Positions 12,998 to 23,312 of a stretch of DNA of 23,312 bases are shown here, piece by piece. Position 1 is the first letter of the stretch. Each line of letters begins with the position of its first letter. The position numbers were made by a program, and so were the translations under genes. The stretch comes from Pseudomonadota bacterium (lineage in GTDB: Bacteria > UBA10199 > 2-02-FULL-44-16 > JAAZCA01), in NCBI GenBank assembly GCA_043798915.1, contig JAZDOG010000065.1, positions 1-23,312 of the forward strand, given 5' to 3'. The notes below the pieces were generated by a model that saw only the letters and a program-made list of their open reading frames with translations, did no database searches and had not been told where the DNA came from.

Positions 12998-13071
12998 GTA
13001 TAAATGCTGTGGTGGCATTTTGTGCGCGTCACACTTGTGAGGATGACAAACATATTCACAAAGGAGACCCT

Positions 13072-14931
13072 ATGAAATCACATTCCTCTTCGTGTCGCTT
13101 GCGCTTATTGGGACTTGCCGCCCTCCCCCTTCTTTTCTGTTTCGCCATGGCGTTGGGAGCGGCGGGCACCTTCTTAAGCGCCGGCTGTCACGACAACAGC
13201 ACCGGGGGCCAGATTTCTGATGAGGGCGCGCCGCTATTAGGGGCGATAACGCCTGGAACGGAAACGCCCGCCCCCCCCGTTCAACCCGATTTTCTGGGGT
13301 TTGAACTTGTGAAACCCGGCGGCAAGGTCTTGCAGCTCACGGACCGGCCCATCCCTCTCAAGGTAACTGTCCGCGCAAAATTTGATTCGGCGATGAATGT
13401 CGCGGAGACACAGAAGGCCATTTCCCTGAAGGACAGCAAAGGCGCGGCGATCGACTGCGCATTCGGCGGGGACAGCAAGAACATCGAGATGACCCCAAAG
13501 GCAAGGCTCAAGACGGGGGAAACGTATAAGGTTGCCATGACTGCCGATGCCAAATCCGAGGCAGGCGTAAAAATCGCAAAAGAAAATACAGGCGAATTCA
13601 AGACCATGATAGCTGGAGATATAGACGGGGACGGAACTGCCGACATAATTGTCGGAGCGACGGCTGAAGGCGCCAATGACAACGGCGCCGTATATATTTA
13701 TTCAGGCAGGGACTTGACGGCCCCATTTCTAAAAATAGCCGAGGCAAAGGAATCTGCAGGTTTTGGTTACGCCGTCAAGCTGGAAGATATCGACAACGAC
13801 GGATATGCCGATGTGCTGGCAAGCAGCCCGGCTTTTCAGATCATCCAGACGCGCGTTGGAAGAGTCTACCTGTTTAAGGCATCTTCCCTGAACACGAACA
13901 AAGCTGGCGCAAGCATCACAACGGAGAACGCCGACAAGCATATCGATGCGCCAGCAGAAACCCTGGACGCGTTTGGCATGTCAATTGATACGGGCGACAT
14001 CAACGGCGACGGATATGCGGAAATCGCCATAGGCGCGCCATATTATACAAGCGACATCAACGACGCACAGAATACGAGGTTTGGGCGGGTCTATTTGTGC
14101 GACGCAGGCAATCCTGATAAAATAAATTTCATATCCACACTGACCGGCAGCATAACAGGGGGAGTTCTCGGCTGGTCCGCGGCCCTCGGCGATATCGACG
14201 GAGACGGGAAGGCGGATCTGCTCGCCGGCGCATTTGCGGCTGACAGCGATAAAGGACGGGCATATGTCTACAGGGGCTCCGAACTCACAAAGGACGCCGT
14301 CGCGGATGACGCCCACGGCATCGCGGGAGAGAACGACCATAATTGGTTCGGGGCTGCAGTGGCGATGGCCGATGTCACAGGCGACGGAAAGGATGAAGTC
14401 GTCGTCGGAGCGCCGTTTTATACAGACGGCCAGAACGGAGGTCTCGGCCGAGTTTATGTCTACAAGGGCGACGATCTTAAAACACCTCTCGCCACGATAA
14501 CCGGGACAGGAAACGCAAAGACAGCGGGGCGTTTGGGTGCTGCGATCGCGCGCGTAAGAGAAGCGCCTGCGAGAGACGCCCTGGTGATCGGAGCTCCATT
14601 CCTGGATGACGAACACGGCGCCATCTATTTCTTCCATGGTGAGAGTTTTGGCAATGACCCGTCAAATCCCATCCTGATGAAAGCCACAGATGCAACCGGC
14701 GACAAGGGCTGGACGCATTCGTCCACGAATCCCGGCAAGACGGGATTTTCAGTGGCGGCCCTTGATGTCAATGCCGACAATAAGGCCGAAATACTTTTCG
14801 GCAGCCCGGATGCCGAGTTCAATGGGGCGGCAAATGGGATGGTAGATGTTTACGGCATTGATGGAAAGCCTTTGAATGCCCTGAAAGGGTTTGCAGCAGA
14901 CAGCAGATTCGGATTTTCAATTGCAAAATAG
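13072..14931 (+). CDS. Lipoprotein with an Ig-like (Big_5/SbsA-like) domain and FG-GAP/integrin-alpha beta-propeller repeats
   Basis: AAGGAG RBS and lipobox SAGC. Ig-like ...TPKARLKTGETYKV. Repeats GDIDGDGTADIIVGA, GDINGDGYAEIAIGAP, GDIDGDGKADLLAGA, DVTGDGKDEVVVGAP, each followed by G.VY.Y. Confidence 0.88.
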   Translation: MKSHSSSCRLRLLGLAALPLLFCFAMALGAAGTFLSAGCHDNSTGGQISDEGAPLLGAITPGTETPAPPVQPDFLGFELVKPGGKVLQLTDRPIPLKVTVRAKFDSAMNVAETQKAISLKDSKGAAIDCAFGGDSKNIEMTPKARLKTGETYKVAMTADAKSEAGVKIAKENTGEFKTMIAGDIDGDGTADIIVGATAEGANDNGAVYIYSGRDLTAPFLKIAEAKESAGFGYAVKLEDIDNDGYADVLASSPAFQIIQTRVGRVYLFKASSLNTNKAGASITTENADKHIDAPAETLDAFGMSIDTGDINGDGYAEIAIGAPYYTSDINDAQNTRFGRVYLCDAGNPDKINFISTLTGSITGGVLGWSAALGDIDGDGKADLLAGAFAADSDKGRAYVYRGSELTKDAVADDAHGIAGENDHNWFGAAVAMADVTGDGKDEVVVGAPFYTDGQNGGLGRVYVYKGDDLKTPLATITGTGNAKTAGRLGAAIARVREAPARDALVIGAPFLDDEHGAIYFFHGESFGNDPSNPILMKATDATGDKGWTHSSTNPGKTGFSVAALDVNADNKAEILFGSPDAEFNGAANGMVDVYGIDGKPLNALKGFAADSRFGFSIAK

Positions 14932-19140: not shown

Positions 19141-19557
19141 TCACTTCTCTCCCAAGGCCGTGTGACATATCGAGTGGACCCATCTCGCATCATCCAGCGC
19201 TTTTTTTGCATCCTCCACCTGATAGAAGTCTGAAGGGGTGAGATCCTCCGAGCCATAAAACGCAAGCTCGCGGTCGCGCCGCATTTCTTTGGATATCCTG
19301 GCGAGGGCATCGACGTGCGGCTTCACGGCCGCTGGCAGGCGGCCCTTTGCGTCGACAAGAAGCGCTCCGACGTCATGAATGCGCGGCACCTCTACGCGCG
19401 CGATGCGCAACAGCCCCTTGAGACAGAGTTCGACGAGTTCCTGGCTCTCACGCACGACATCGGCATAACCCTTTCTTTCGAACAACAATTCGACAGCGGC
19501 AAGCCGATGCCCCGACCTCTCGATATAATCACGAGCGAGATCCCTGTTCTTCATCAT
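19141..19557 (-). CDS. HEPN domain protein (putative toxin)
   Basis: VVRESQELVELCLKGLL...VPRIHDV...RELAFYG pattern; overlaps the upstream nucleotidyltransferase. Confidence 0.88.
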   Translation of the reverse strand: MMKNRDLARDYIERSGHRLAAVELLFERKGYADVVRESQELVELCLKGLLRIARVEVPRIHDVGALLVDAKGRLPAAVKPHVDALARISKEMRRDRELAFYGSEDLTPSDFYQVEDAKKALDDARWVHSICHTALGEK

Positions 19558-20125
19558 CCCTCCTCACCCAGTAGGGCTGGCCGCCCTTCCAATAGCGGCG
19601 AACCGCATCGCCTTCTATGAGTTTCTTGACCTGTCCGATAAAGGATGAAAGGGCGCGGCCGCGCTCCCAGATTATCTGTGACGCAAGGGCAACCTCGAAC
19701 CAGATGCTTCCAGCATGAGCGGCATCCTTCGGGAGATTTACAAACTGCGGGCTCGCCTCTGCGCGCCCCTGCCATTTGATCGCGCCATCCCACCACGAAT
19801 AAAGGGAGCGCCTGATCGGAACGCCGGCGTCGAGGACTATCAGGACGTCGAGATCCGACTCATCCGTCGACGTCCCCGCAATCTGCGAGCCGAAGACGGC
19901 CACGCCGGCGAGCCGCGGACCGAAATGTTTTTTCAGCAGCGCTGCGAGCTTCTCGCAATCGCCAAGCCACCACGCTTCATCCATCTTTCCGTGCAGGCCC
20001 GAACTGATAAAACCGGAGCAAATGGTATTTATGGAAACGCCGGCCTGCAAGGCGCGCCTCGCGAGGCCAGAGTGCAAGGCCGGATCGATGCGGAGCAGCA
20101 GCTTTCCAGAGTAATCCGTTTTCAT
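19529..20125 (-). CDS. Minimal nucleotidyltransferase (MNT) fused to an N-terminal HicB-like ribbon-helix-helix domain
   Basis: N-terminal YSGKLLLRIDPALH..LA..A...GVSIN; MNT motif VFGSQIAG....SDLDVLIV. Confidence 0.85.
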   Translation of the reverse strand: MKTDYSGKLLLRIDPALHSGLARRALQAGVSINTICSGFISSGLHGKMDEAWWLGDCEKLAALLKKHFGPRLAGVAVFGSQIAGTSTDESDLDVLIVLDAGVPIRRSLYSWWDGAIKWQGRAEASPQFVNLPKDAAHAGSIWFEVALASQIIWERGRALSSFIGQVKKLIEGDAVRRYWKGGQPYWVRRDDEEQGSRS

Positions 20126-20173: not shown

Positions 20174-21016
20174 TCACATCCCCATCGATGGCGTCCAATG
20201 TCTGGACTTTCCCTTCGCCGCGTCGATCTTCGCCAGGACTTGAAAGGCCGCGAGCCCGGTCTCGATGCAGCGCTTGTCGGCCAGCTCCCGGAGCTCGCTG
20301 TCGATGAAGGTGTTCTTGTGCCGGTTGGCATAGATGGAGCAGACAGCGCCCGACCTGGCGCCTGAAAATTGGGCCAGCGTAAAGAGGCACGAAGCCTCCA
20401 TCTCCAGGTTGCAGACATTCATCGCATCGAGTTTTGCCGGCACGTCCGGATCGCGCGGCGGAAACCCCGGGACCTTGCGCGACTGCGCGCCGTAGAAACC
20501 GGGCGCCGTCGCCGTGAGCCCCGCATGGTGCGGGAAATTCTTTTTTCGCGCGGCCTCGATGAGCGCGATGACCACCTCGTGATGCGCCACCGCCGGATAT
20601 CCCTCGCAGACGTAGGCGGTCGATGTGTTCTCGAGGCGCACAGCGCCGGTCGATATCACCAGCTCGCCAAGTTTTATCCCCTGTTTCAGCGCGCCGGAGG
20701 AGCCTATCCTTATGTATGTGGGGTCCTTCACGATCTGCGTGAGCTCGACGATCGCCATCTCGGTGTTGTCGGGCCCCATGCCGGTCGCTATGACCGTCAT
20801 CGGCAGCCCCTTGTGCTTGCCAGTGATCGTCACATATTCGCGGCTCGTGATCGGCGGCCTCTTCTCGTCAAAGTATTCCGCGACGAGATATGCGCGGCCG
20901 GGATCGCCGCAGAGGAGGATGTTTTTCGCGACATCCCCCGGCTTCAAGCCTGTGTGATATTGCCGGCCCTCGGCTGTGGCCACGATCTCCGCAGACTTGA
21001 AGCTTTTCTTTGCCAT
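20174..21016 (-). CDS. Uridine/nucleoside phosphorylase (PNP_UDP_1 family)
   Basis: LLCGDPGRA, REY, TGMG, IRIGSSGAL, FYGAQSR, NLEMEAS motifs. Confidence 0.92.
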   Translation of the reverse strand: MAKKSFKSAEIVATAEGRQYHTGLKPGDVAKNILLCGDPGRAYLVAEYFDEKRPPITSREYVTITGKHKGLPMTVIATGMGPDNTEMAIVELTQIVKDPTYIRIGSSGALKQGIKLGELVISTGAVRLENTSTAYVCEGYPAVAHHEVVIALIEAARKKNFPHHAGLTATAPGFYGAQSRKVPGFPPRDPDVPAKLDAMNVCNLEMEASCLFTLAQFSGARSGAVCSIYANRHKNTFIDSELRELADKRCIETGLAAFQVLAKIDAAKGKSRHWTPSMGM

Positions 21017-21074
21017 ATATCCCTCCGGTTGCGCGCTATTTAAACGCCGATGCCGGCAAACTCAAGGTGTATTT

Positions 21075-21210
21075 GTAACTATTCAGGTGCCTGTGCCTCT
21101 TTTCCCTCTCCCTTGAGGGGAGAGGGTCGGGGTGAGGGTGGCAATGGCAACCGGGTGAAAAAATCGCAGGGTCACCCTCCCTCCGACTCCCTCCCATCAA
21201 GGGAGGGAGG
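21075..21210 (-). mobile_element. ~135-bp non-coding palindromic element, second full copy
   Basis: Reverse complement of 8541-8676, including the internal spacer (ccctgcgat..ttttcacc.gg). Starts with gtaactattcaggtgc. Confidence 0.8.
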
Positions 21211-21295
21211 GTTTTGGAGAAAATTCAAGTGTCGGATTATGGGGGTTAAAAGAAACATCTTGCCCGCTGCCCGATGTGGCATTATAACCCGGCTT

Positions 21296-21721
21296 ATGAC
21301 GCTTGATCTCACAAGCCTTGAAAAGGCGGCGGGATCGCTGGATGCGGCTGTGGCAGTCGCGAGCGACGGGTCGTTCATGTCGCGGCTCACCGCAGAGCAG
21401 ACCGACACGGTGCGGGCCGGCGTCATCCAGAACTTTGAATTCACCTATGAGCTCTGCTGGAAGTTCATACAGCGCTGGCTCAAGGAACACCAGCACCTGG
21501 AGGATGCCGCGCTTCCCCGCACTCGGAAGGACCTTTTCCGGCTGGCCGCAAAGCATGGCCTCATCGACAGCCCTGAACGCTGGTTCGACTACGGCGACGC
21601 GAGAAACATCACCGCCCACACCTACGATCACCAGAAGGCGCAGATAGTCTACGATGCCGCCATCAAATTCGCGAAGGACGCGCGGGCGCTTCTCAAACGC
21701 CTCGGGGCCTTGAACGAATGA
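21296..21721 (+). CDS. HEPN-type nucleotidyltransferase substrate-binding protein (HI0074 family)
   Basis: RAGVIQNFEFTYELCWK and RNITAHTYD (Rx4H). Start set at ATG 21296. Confidence 0.92.
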   Translation: MTLDLTSLEKAAGSLDAAVAVASDGSFMSRLTAEQTDTVRAGVIQNFEFTYELCWKFIQRWLKEHQHLEDAALPRTRKDLFRLAAKHGLIDSPERWFDYGDARNITAHTYDHQKAQIVYDAAIKFAKDARALLKRLGALNE

Positions 21722-22023
21722 TCGATCTCACTCCCGACGAGCTCGCTGAAGTAAAGCGCATCCTCGCCGAACATGCGCAGGGCATGGAAGTCTGGGCCTT
21801 CGGCTCGCGAGTGGACGGGAGTTCAAGAAAGAACTCGGATCTGGACCTTGCGATCGTGACGCCCGCCAAAGTGGACTGGCGCCTCATTGAACGCATCAAG
21901 GACGCATTCTCCTCATCAAACCTGCCATTCATGGTGGATGTCGTGGAACTCGCCTCGCTGCCTGAGGGCGTTGCCGCTACAGCAAGAAAAAGGCATGAGG
22001 TGATTCAGGAAGCTGGATCATAA
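21718..22023 (+). CDS. Minimal nucleotidyltransferase (MNT) antitoxin
   Basis: VWAFGSRVDG.....SDLDLAI...SNLPFMVDVV; ATGA overlap with the HEPN gene. Confidence 0.92.
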   Translation: MIDLTPDELAEVKRILAEHAQGMEVWAFGSRVDGSSRKNSDLDLAIVTPAKVDWRLIERIKDAFSSSNLPFMVDVVELASLPEGVAATARKRHEVIQEAGS

Positions 22024-22079
22024 AAAACCCCACCCCTCCCGCTCATCCGCCAAAAGCGGATTACGAGGGCTGGGTGGGG
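22022..22079 (-). terminator. Intrinsic terminator-like hairpin closing the DGR TR transcript
   Basis: Minus strand ccccaccc..ccc..tc..atccgc-tttt-g-gcggat-gagcgggaggggtgggg followed by TTTTTT. Confidence 0.6.
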
Positions 22080-22210
22080 CCATGCGATCTTCGGTTCGCC
22101 GCATTTCCAGCGACAAATCAGGGCGATCGATCTGGACTCCTCCGGGCGCTCTCCCGGATTCCGTGAAATCCGGGACTCCGGCCCAAAGCTCTTGACTCCG
22201 CAAAGGAGTG
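22080..22210 (-). ncRNA. Structured spacer 3' of the DGR template repeat (putative cis-priming RNA region)
   Basis: Non-coding and directly 3' of TR. Contains the perfect 9-bp stem tcccggatt-(6 nt)-aatccggga at 22152-22175. Position is equivalent to the DGR Sp region. Confidence 0.55.
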
Positions 22211-22344
22211 CTGGGGCGGGACAACACAACGAAACCCGATATTGTTGTTGCGGTTATCGGGATTGTCGTTGTTGCGATTCGCGGCCCGCAGGTTGTGCGA
22301 GGCGTTGTTATCGTTGTTGTTCCAGGAACCGCCGCGAACTACCC
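22211..22344 (-). repeat. DGR template repeat (TR)
   Basis: Minus strand reads [45 protein letters not shown] with AAC/AAT codons. Ungapped match to 23042-23175. Confidence 0.95.
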
Positions 22345-22360
22345 CTGTGATCGATTGCCC

Positions 22361-22435
22361 TCACTGCTTTTCAAAGATCGTTTCCGCCAGCAGGTTGTTT
22401 CTCAACCGCGCTGTGTCCGCGTGCTCCGCATGGGC
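22361..22435 (-). pseudogene. C-terminal remnant of a DGR reverse transcriptase
   Basis: Translates AHAEHADTARLRNNLLAETIFEKQ*, resembling the W.(G/A)H..HA.T..LR tail of DGR RTs. Cut off by the repeat at 22438 and ends 16 bp before TR. Confidence 0.7.
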
Positions 22436-22815
22436 TGCCTCTTTTCTCCCTCCCTTGAGGGGAGGGAGTCAGAGGGAGGGTGATCCCCGCATTCATCAAG
22501 AATTATCTTTAAAACTCCTGCGGTGTTCTGCAAAACATCCGTATTCCAAAACCGCAGGACTTTATATCCCTCCTCTGTGAGCCATTCATCCCTGTCTGTA
22601 TCTTTCAGGGTTTGATCGGCATGCTGGCCGCCGTCGCATTCAATGACGACACGTTTTTCAAGACAGGCAAAGTCTACGATATATTTTCCTATCGGAACCT
22701 GTCTGCGGAACTTGAATCCTGCCAACTGCCGCAGTTTAAGGTGCCGCCACAGAAACTTTTCGGTATCGGTCGCGTTGTTTCGCAAATCCTTTGCGTTGGA
22801 GACGAGTGTTTTCAA
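22402..22815 (-). CDS. DUF559 / Vsr-like (PD-(D/E)xK) endonuclease domain protein
   Basis: AKDLRNNATDTEKFLWRHLK.RQLAGFKFRRQVPIGKYIVDFAC...VIECDGGQH...D..RDEWL...GYKVLRFWN. The last ~26 codons read through the flanking repeat and the RT remnant. Confidence 0.92.
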   Translation of the reverse strand: MKTLVSNAKDLRNNATDTEKFLWRHLKLRQLAGFKFRRQVPIGKYIVDFACLEKRVVIECDGGQHADQTLKDTDRDEWLTEEGYKVLRFWNTDVLQNTAGVLKIILDECGDHPPSDSLPSREGEKRQPMRSTRTQRG

Positions 22816-22865
22816 AGGTCACCCCCACCCTGACCCTCCCCCCTCAAAGGGGGAGGGAAAAGAGG
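22438..22865 (-). mobile_element. DUF559 cassette bounded by palindromic repeat arms
   Basis: Left end cctcttttctccctcccttgaggggagggagtcagagggagggtga; right end tcacccccaccctgaccctccccc..aaagggggagggaaaagagg. Terminal inverted repeat cctcttttc/gaaaagagg. Same arms as 8541-8676 and 21075-21210. Confidence 0.75.
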
Positions 22866-22959
22866 TGTATCTCTCAGAACGCGGAAATTTTGCGACCTGC
22901 GGGATGAGGTACAGGAGGAAGTCATACGTCTTCGTTACGATTTGAATCTCTGTGGCCAT
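22864..22959 (-). pseudogene. avd: N-terminal fragment of DGR accessory variability determinant (Avd-like four-helix bundle)
   Basis: MATEIQIVTKTYDFLLYLIPQVAKFPRSERYT matches the K.YD...W/Y......KFP+..+Y/F.L start of Avd-like proteins. It runs into the repeat and stops at 22819. Confidence 0.8.
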
Positions 22960-22964
22960 AGCGC

Positions 22965-22994
22965 GGACGAGCGCTCAAACCCGAGCGCTCATCC
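22965..22994. promoter_or_regulatory. Hairpin downstream of VR (putative DGR target-recognition stem-loop)
   Basis: ggacgagcgctc-aaaccc-gagcgctcatcc, a 12-bp stem with one mismatch, 32 bp past the VR stop codon. Confidence 0.6.
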
Positions 22995-23026
22995 GAGTGT
23001 AAGAAACCACAGGGTAAAAGGCTACA

Positions 23027-23175
23027 CTATTTTTTTGAGTCCTGGGGCGGGACAACACAACGGAACCCGACATTGACGAAGCGACCATCGGGATCGACGT
23101 CGTCGCGATACGCGGCCCGCAGACGGCGCGAGGCACCGTTGACGTAGCTGTACCAGGAACCGCCGCGAACCACCC
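23027..23175 (-). repeat. DGR variable repeat (VR), C-terminus of a CLec/FGE-sulfatase-type target, lacking its upstream gene
   Basis: Reads [49 protein letters not shown]. 27 mismatches to TR, 22 at TR adenines. In-frame TGA at 23192-23194 just upstream. Confidence 0.92.
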
Positions 23176-23191
23176 CTGTGATCGATTGCCC

Positions 23192-23232
23192 TCACTGCTT
23201 TTCAAAACCACATCAGCAAACAAATTTTTCCG
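23192..23232 (-). pseudogene. Possible second DGR RT C-terminal remnant (1-nt frameshift)
   Basis: RKNLFADVV|FEKQ* aligns to RNNLLAETIFEKQ* of the first remnant but is 41 instead of 42 nt. Confidence 0.45.
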
Positions 23233-23236
23233 GTAT

Positions 23237-23312
23237 GGACACCTCTAAAAACTCCTGTTTGTCATTGCGAGCGACCAACGGGAGCGCGGCAATCCCTTGG
23301 AACCAGAGAGAT
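23237..23312. repeat. GTCATTGCGAG..GCAATC-type palindromic repeat, truncated by the window end
   Basis: ggacacctctaaaaactc..gtcattgcgagcgaccaacgggagcgcggcaatccc; the inverted second arm appears to begin at the last bases (gagat). Confidence 0.6.

Follow-up and report, generated by a model that had tools for sequence, protein, structure and literature searches.

The window analysed here (23,312 nucleotides, the whole of contig C73 of genome G000) carries near one end what is probably the dead remnant of a recently inactivated chromosomal diversity-generating retroelement (DGR) of architecture B2, with the order target-avd-RT-TR-spacer and with targets of the FGE-sulfatase/CLec type. This reading is supported by the match between the template repeat (TR) and the VR on contig C102, the lack of an RT in the assembly and the many independently decayed loci of the class. 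Against it stand the DGR copies at contig ends, so that avd-RT could be unassembled, and the conservation of the spacer; against plain decay stands the recurrence of the junctions, which is closer than plain decay would be expected to give. The features of the locus are as follows.

22020-22210, minus strand: structured spacer RNA with a conserved fold, ending in a terminator-like stem and U-run
22211-22360, minus strand: TR core (22211-22343) and TR leader (22344-22360), the core having 22 differences from the C102 VR over its 133 sites
22361-22432, minus strand: last 23 codons and stop of a DGR RT, aligning with the C-terminus of the DGR RTs of 15 relatives
22438-22865, minus strand: 428-bp cassette of a BoxC/TM-type arm, a DUF559 gene (TTG start at 22815) and an inverted second arm, identified by Pfam, the consensus and the inverted-repeat ends
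22864-22959, minus strand: avd stub, first 31-32 codons (NF033474, E=2.4e-5, model positions 2-28 of 104)
22964-22995, minus strand: 13-bp hairpin 3' of the repeat, with one G-T pair (fold z=-4.7)
23027-23041, minus strand: VR-type 3' end with stop TAG, common to the intact C102 target
23042-23174, minus strand: adenine-diversified repeat core, the VR-like part of a TR/VR hybrid, outside any gene (22 of 35 adenines changed)
23175-23206, minus strand: RT stop codon and copy of the TR leader, with an in-frame TGA at 23192-23194; 32 of 32 positions identical to 22344-22375, 0 of 11 adenines changed
23206-23232, minus strand: second, different DGR RT tail, nine C-terminal codons RKNLFADVV (21.1 bits)
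23259-23312, minus strand: part of a palindromic repeat of a second family, 93% identical over 54 nt to a copy on C92, with shorter matches on C89 and others

Adenine bias of the repeat pair

Re-alignment of 22211-22375 with 23042-23206 on the minus strand reproduced the gapless repeat pair of the preliminary description, with an offset of 831 and 27 mismatches in 165 nt. Adenines in the AAC-rich copy were affected by 22 of them (13 A>G, 8 A>T and 1 A>C), and the others were 3 C>T and 2 T>C. The best ungapped match of 165 nt had 138 identities, compared with 63-70 in 20 shuffles. The enrichment at adenines, named beforehand as the test of the proposal, was upheld, since changes had hit 22 of 46 template adenines compared with 5 of the remaining 119 bases (Fisher p=2e-10). 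The 46 adenines consisted of 35 in the core and 11 in the 32-nt leader, and all 22 changed ones lay in the core; the earlier count of 22 of 35 in the repeat proper is therefore correct once the 11 leader adenines are set apart. The five non-adenine changes of the hybrid core were all at third positions. Comparison of the TR core with the C102 VR gave 21 of 22 mismatches at adenines (p=3e-14) and one elsewhere. The two repeats thus differed almost only at TR adenines, both in the window and against C102, as in DGRs, and this bias, the Avd stub and the RT tail together support the DGR origin of the locus. A single sequencing run (share 0.06), when mapped, gave coverage of little beyond the repeats.

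Template repeat and spacer RNA

Judged from sequence, the window TR, or an identical copy of it, wrote the VR of the C102 target. The structured spacer proposed 3' of this TR was recovered as a predicted fold, in which 47 of 50 conserved pairs were unbroken in comparison with 11 relatives. One pair that is invariant in all 11 relatives was broken at 22118. Departures from invariant columns numbered 3-4 in the window spacer and 0-6 in the relatives by a leave-one-out comparison. Decay of the spacer was considered and rejected, since this control gave it no support and the window spacer lay within the range of the complete relatives. Because the spacer is no more divergent than that of complete members, the loss of avd and RT appears to be recent. 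As for the proposed terminator, its stem was found to belong to the conserved spacer fold, but a simple terminator scan made no call. A search of Rfam over 20900-23312 gave no credible match, and a promoter scan found no sigma-70-like promoter.

The copy at 23042-23232 as a TR/VR hybrid

The preliminary description took 23042-23206 as the end of a target gene and missed the in-frame TGA and the second RT tail directly before this supposed VR. That assignment did not hold: the copy contains the RT stop codon and the TR leader after a different RT tail, and it is therefore a TR/VR hybrid, occupying the place of a former TR. The nine codons RKNLFADVV were scored with a matrix built from 38 distinct RT tails, and none of 540,056 genomic 9-mers reached their score; they lie one base out of register with the downstream sequence. 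On its 3' side the hybrid is followed by a VR-type 3' end, the hairpin and the avd start, and its core matched the C-terminus of the FGE-sulfatase family in Pfam (E=1e-5). On C102 a protein-coding target does end in its VR, whereas the window copy has the in-frame TGA. The VR-type and TR 3' ends diverge directly after the repeat, at what we take to be the position of IMH versus IMH*.

The hairpin after the VR folded as had been proposed, and its copy on C102 was perfect, with no G-T pair. A role of hairpins downstream of the VR and short-homology 5' integration have been described, as far as the accessible text goes (PMC3240598).

Since none of the 11 leader adenines was changed (p=0.04 at a 25% rate), DNA-level recombination or conversion is favoured over mutagenic cDNA for the leader part of the hybrid. 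Right where the core begins there is one A>G, and this suggests that homing took place once the hybrid existed. The reciprocal fusion, in which a target runs into the 3' end of the TR and the spacer, was found at four loci in three other genomes among 93 genomes of the class. A sibling TR was considered as the possible writer of the hybrid; three of the five non-adenine differences of the hybrid match the closest relative, L188, but the excess of five such differences over one was not significant (p=0.21).

The contig terminates inside the palindromic repeat at 23259-23312, and near-identical pieces lie at the ends of C73, C74, C80 and C102. With 105 contigs and 3.3% contamination in the assembly, the hybrid repeat, the second RT tail and the copies on C74 and C80 might in part be a mosaic misassembled from DGR copies or strains across abundant repeats. 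We consider this very improbable, as the avd/cassette junction is unique sequence on two contigs, the same type of junction occurs in a genome of three contigs (G003) and the reciprocal hybrids occur in the three other genomes.

Remnants of avd and RT flank a DUF559 cassette

The proposal that avd and RT have been lost at this locus was supported, as remnants of 32 and 23 codons flank the cassette. The Avd fragment was confirmed by the NCBIfam model of DGR Avd and was 67-69% identical to the intact Avd of a relative; against Pfam bAvd it scored only E=0.075. The RT fragment had no match in Pfam, but its alignment to the RT C-termini of the 15 relatives confirmed it. The DUF559 gene between the two remnants, which had also been noticed before, matched PF04480 above the cut-off over the full model (142.9 bits, E=4e-42, model positions 3-108 of 109). 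DUF559 has been grouped with Vsr in the Vsr-like PD-(D/E)XK group, according to the part of that work available (PMC3424549).

The cassette ends are inverted repeats. Its left arm, at 22857, fits the TMECO consensus (a C-rich stem, a loop and two G-rich stems) with one mismatch, which is the number allowed; the right arm did not match the consensus at up to two mismatches and, by eye, has a three-stem layout like that of the left arm. Exact matches to the BoxC consensus numbered 36 in the genome. The arms resemble the BoxC/PIT/TMECO intrastrand-triplex repeats of Holder et al. 2015 (PMC4666352) in the one-mismatch left arm, in the inverted arrangement of the two arms and in the association with local sequence loss, BoxC-type motifs having been linked to local instability in E. 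coli. In the accessible sections of that article the E. coli repeats are intergenic and not associated with mobile elements, whereas here the arms enclose a DUF559 gene within coding sequence, the right one in variant form.

A circumstantial hint that such cassettes may be self-mobile comes from the locus L196, which has a cassette, and its relative L200, which has none. At L196:600-1260 (oriented), a DUF559 gene and several hairpin arms stand in place of the region between target and avd, and the two DGRs are 90% alike in the RT stretch compared. A search of mainly open-access articles returned no report joining DGRs with DUF559 and none matching on DUF559 with palindromic repeats.

Target and other copies in the genome

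The assembly comprises 2.3 Mb and is 97% complete. C102 ends with an intact target gene of 288 aa (FGE-sulfatase, 169 bits), whose VR is followed by the same hairpin and 14 avd codons before the contig stops. A second unit of avd stub, partial DUF559 gene and RT tail lies at the start of C74 and ends in another hybrid, and a third piece, with a DUF559 end and an RT tail, lies at the start of C80. Older, more diverged targets and bare VR 3' ends were found on C75, C20, C89, C92, C71 and C98. Similar ORFs of about 80 aa follow several VR remnants (C74:1035, C75 at about 1200 and C71 at about 13950), and the one on C74 has no Pfam match. The cassettes on C74 and C80 were also considered as adenine-mutated cDNA of the window cassette, which was rejected, as the window stands alone with A at several sites that have G in C74, C80 and G003.

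No RVT_1 (Pfam) match was found in the genome, and a clade profile and tblastn with the RT of a relative gave two tails only, so that the assembly contains no full-length DGR RT. Nor does it contain a full-length Avd: C73 and C74 have stubs, and the copy on C102 is cut by the contig end. Contigs end within DGR copies (C102 in avd codon 14, C74 and C13 at target starts), and absence of the RT from the assembly therefore does not show its absence from the cell.

This gap bears on whether TR, leader and spacer still make a usable RNA as a non-autonomous donor, with Avd and RT supplied in trans from a part of the genome missing from the assembly or from minority cells. All cis parts for such a donor are present, the spacer is within the range of complete relatives, and the TR has only one non-adenine difference to the C102 VR; C102 itself ends in avd, before the cassette junction would be reached. 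Trans use of TRs and intact minority variants have moreover been reported for degenerate Thiohalocapsa loci, in the part of the report available (Doré et al., 10.1101/2023.09.22.558884). We nevertheless regard a living donor as unlikely, because an RT is missing from a 97%-complete assembly, the spacer has lost the pair that all 11 relatives keep, each RT or avd piece that is assembled far enough is broken, and G003, which is 100% complete, has the same lesion without a second avd or RT.

Architecture and relatives

Complete target-avd-RT-TR loci in relatives across the class bore out the ancestral order proposed for the window, where avd, RT and TR remnants follow one another on one strand after the target. 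This order had been contrasted with the avd-TR-RT order of Bordetella BPP-1; it is not unusual, being described as architecture B2 (avd-RT-TR) by Wu et al. 2018 (PMC5758913). The locus shares with B2 the gene order, an FGE-sulfatase-type target and a non-adjacent target matched except at adenines. It differs from B2, as described in the sections available, in that only 32 codons of avd and 23 of RT are left and the adjacent repeat, though diversified, is not part of any gene. The clade RT motif gave no match in viral contigs, and thus there is no sign of a phage location.

Of the 22 avd matches in the 93 class genomes, one is not a DGR gene and 7 are 5' stubs, of which the present genome contributes two. 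The stubs are followed by DUF559, by other repeat elements or by a direct deletion, and the other stubs end at codons about 18-68, with other elements or none. The stub of L058 (G071:C26) is followed by a palindrome-flanked cassette on the reverse strand and that of L065 (G015:C4) by a lone palindromic repeat.

A close counterpart was found in G003, of another genus, in which a DUF559 cassette of the same type follows avd codon 30 and the RT is kept from about residue 70; no second avd or RT was found in this genome. The cassettes of G003 and G000 lie within about 10 nt of the same avd position, but only 2 of 11 junction bases are shared and the RT endpoints differ. Because the junction differs, most stub differences (11 of 18) are at third positions and the TR/VR core of G003 differs only at adenines, the two are read as independent recent events. 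In the tree the two nucleases are sisters with weak support (84/81). In another family, contig C133 of G038 carries an avd stub, a BoxC-like remnant and an RT tail that starts from the S-W-I-G codons, with junctions within four codons of those in G000.

Such recurrence could mean that BoxC-DUF559 elements prefer DGR cores, for example through the hairpin or single-stranded DNA near the VR, and excise avd-RT at favoured sites as a recurrent and irreversible off switch. To this we assign a slim chance, somewhat below that of the donor acting in trans. The near-coincident but separate junction of G003 and the layout of G038:C133 speak for it; at L196, DUF559 replaced the region between target and avd; and of 31 metagenome RT loci, 2 had DUF559 at a distance of no more than about 2 kb, where 0.03 were expected from the class density. 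On the other hand, only 2 of 30 inspected DUF559 loci of the class (84 matches in all) were in DGRs, one of them being the window, and the 1 of 80 RT loci in the genome_contigs set was not above chance (p=0.15). The sister relationship of the G000 and G003 nucleases leaves shared ancestry possible, the observed breakpoints are biased because short stubs are undetectable, and dispensable islands gather such elements anyway. Since other stubs end elsewhere, with other elements or none, the clustering does not need DUF559.

Proposed course of inactivation

A recently inactivated DGR would account for the locus in four steps. The TR, or an identical copy, wrote the VR of the 288-aa C102 gene. Two related DGR units would have stood in tandem, and TR-VR recombination or conversion would have left the hybrid at 23042-23232. 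The BoxC-armed DUF559 cassette, whose anatomy is seen in the window, may have taken the place of about 1.2 kb between avd codon 32 and the last 23 codons of RT, either through an insertion accompanied by deletion or through recombination of one arm with another. As the assembly lacks an RT, the targets would now be frozen, while the RNA donor shows no visible decay so far. We best understand the cassette as one of several routes of DGR death in the lineage, tolerated or favoured once a useful variant had been fixed.

Replacement of a DGR RT by small repeat elements is an already known kind of decay, and its recurrence at nearly the same spot in related bacteria is less ordinary. MITE-like arrays replaced the RT at two Thiohalocapsa DGRs (Doré et al., 10.1101/2023.09.22.558884). 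Like Thiohalocapsa PB-PSB1, the present genome has several related DGR loci with CLec targets, small inverted-repeat elements in place of the RT gene and targets that match a TR elsewhere at non-adenine sites. From what is available of that report, PB-PSB1 has one complete locus per class, whereas none is assembled here, and its MITE-like arrays are IS-derived, whereas the element here is a BoxC-armed DUF559 gene.

Such decayed loci are missed by DGR finders that start from the RT, and an adenine-mutated copy beside a TR need not be a target gene. The layouts of avd stub, BoxC-type element and RT remnant in three genomes of two families provide defined junctions for testing cutting by DUF559.

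A tandem-repeat tract in the RT genes of relatives

In the RT genes of the clade, a tandem repeat of 4-, 5- or 8-base units was found directly ahead of the GIPIGN motif (L046-L064, L068-L097 and L178-L208). Fourteen of 16 distinct scorable alleles were out of frame and two in frame; 12 of these alleles came from class genomes (one of the 12 being a short imperfect tract) and 4 from a set of 31 metagenome loci, leaving out duplicates and G082, whose contig breaks in the tract. The excess of off alleles over the 2-in-3 of free slippage was not significant (p=0.06). Among the 22 metagenome loci without the tract, 18 were in frame, one was out of frame and three were not scorable. The tract was not found in some 76 RTs of greater distance, which had been ranked by score and are thereby biased towards intact genes. 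Otherwise identical allele pairs differed in unit number, 13 versus 8 and 9 versus 8, the former pair with 20 further differences clustered in the VR. L188, the closest relative of the window TR-spacer (80%), has an out-of-frame tract, and the deleted RT of the window therefore probably had one as well. At L081 (G054:C49) and L185, deletions end at the RT repeat site and join avd codon 18 or the whole avd to the second half of the RT.

A DGR RT split over reading frames is also known from Quimbyvirus, in which the RT is frameshifted and the element still diversifies (PMC8008677); the likeness applies to the relatives and not to the window. As far as that article is available, the Quimbyvirus shifts are read as programmed frameshifts and no tandem repeat is named, whereas the shift seen in the clade falls within a tract of 4-, 5- or 8-base units whose number varies. 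The search of mainly open-access articles gave no matching report on DGRs with repeat slippage.

It is conceivable, but again unlikely, that DGRs of this lineage are restrained at two levels, reversibly by slippage of the RT repeat and irreversibly by BoxC-DUF559 removal of avd-RT at favoured junctions, with TR, leader and spacer spared. If this were true, the window would show where a recurrent shut-off route ends, perhaps with some remaining use as a donor in trans, and DGR cores would be natural substrates of an uncharacterised DUF559 nuclease. The RT tracts of the relatives are a clean test case for control of an RT by repeat slippage. The recurrent junctions and the repeat switch of the relatives are the worthwhile leads, and the locus itself is ordinary as a decayed DGR.

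Additional observations

Two further loci of relatives were of note. In L039 (G011:C1), a complete DGR with two targets is duplicated in tandem over 5,909 bp, Avd and RT being identical. At L061:1211-2023 (G017:C50), an RNase P RNA gene, which matches the full RF00010 model over 813 nt (232 bits), is split by the gene of a four-helix-bundle protein (TIGR02436, 109 bits), of a kind known from 23S rRNA intervening sequences. Within the window, three toxin-antitoxin-like pairs lie near repeat elements (21302-22023, 19141-20125 and 1625-2198), two consisting of a nucleotidyltransferase and a HEPN-type partner and one of Gp49-like and HI1420-like proteins. A cysteine-rich ORF of 459 aa at 181-1560, with many CxxC repeats and a weak zinc-ribbon match only, lies near inverted repeats of 22-26 nt at 156-177 and 1367-1420. 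A protein with Ig-like and FG-GAP repeats is encoded on the plus strand at 13009-14931, flanked by minus-strand genes.
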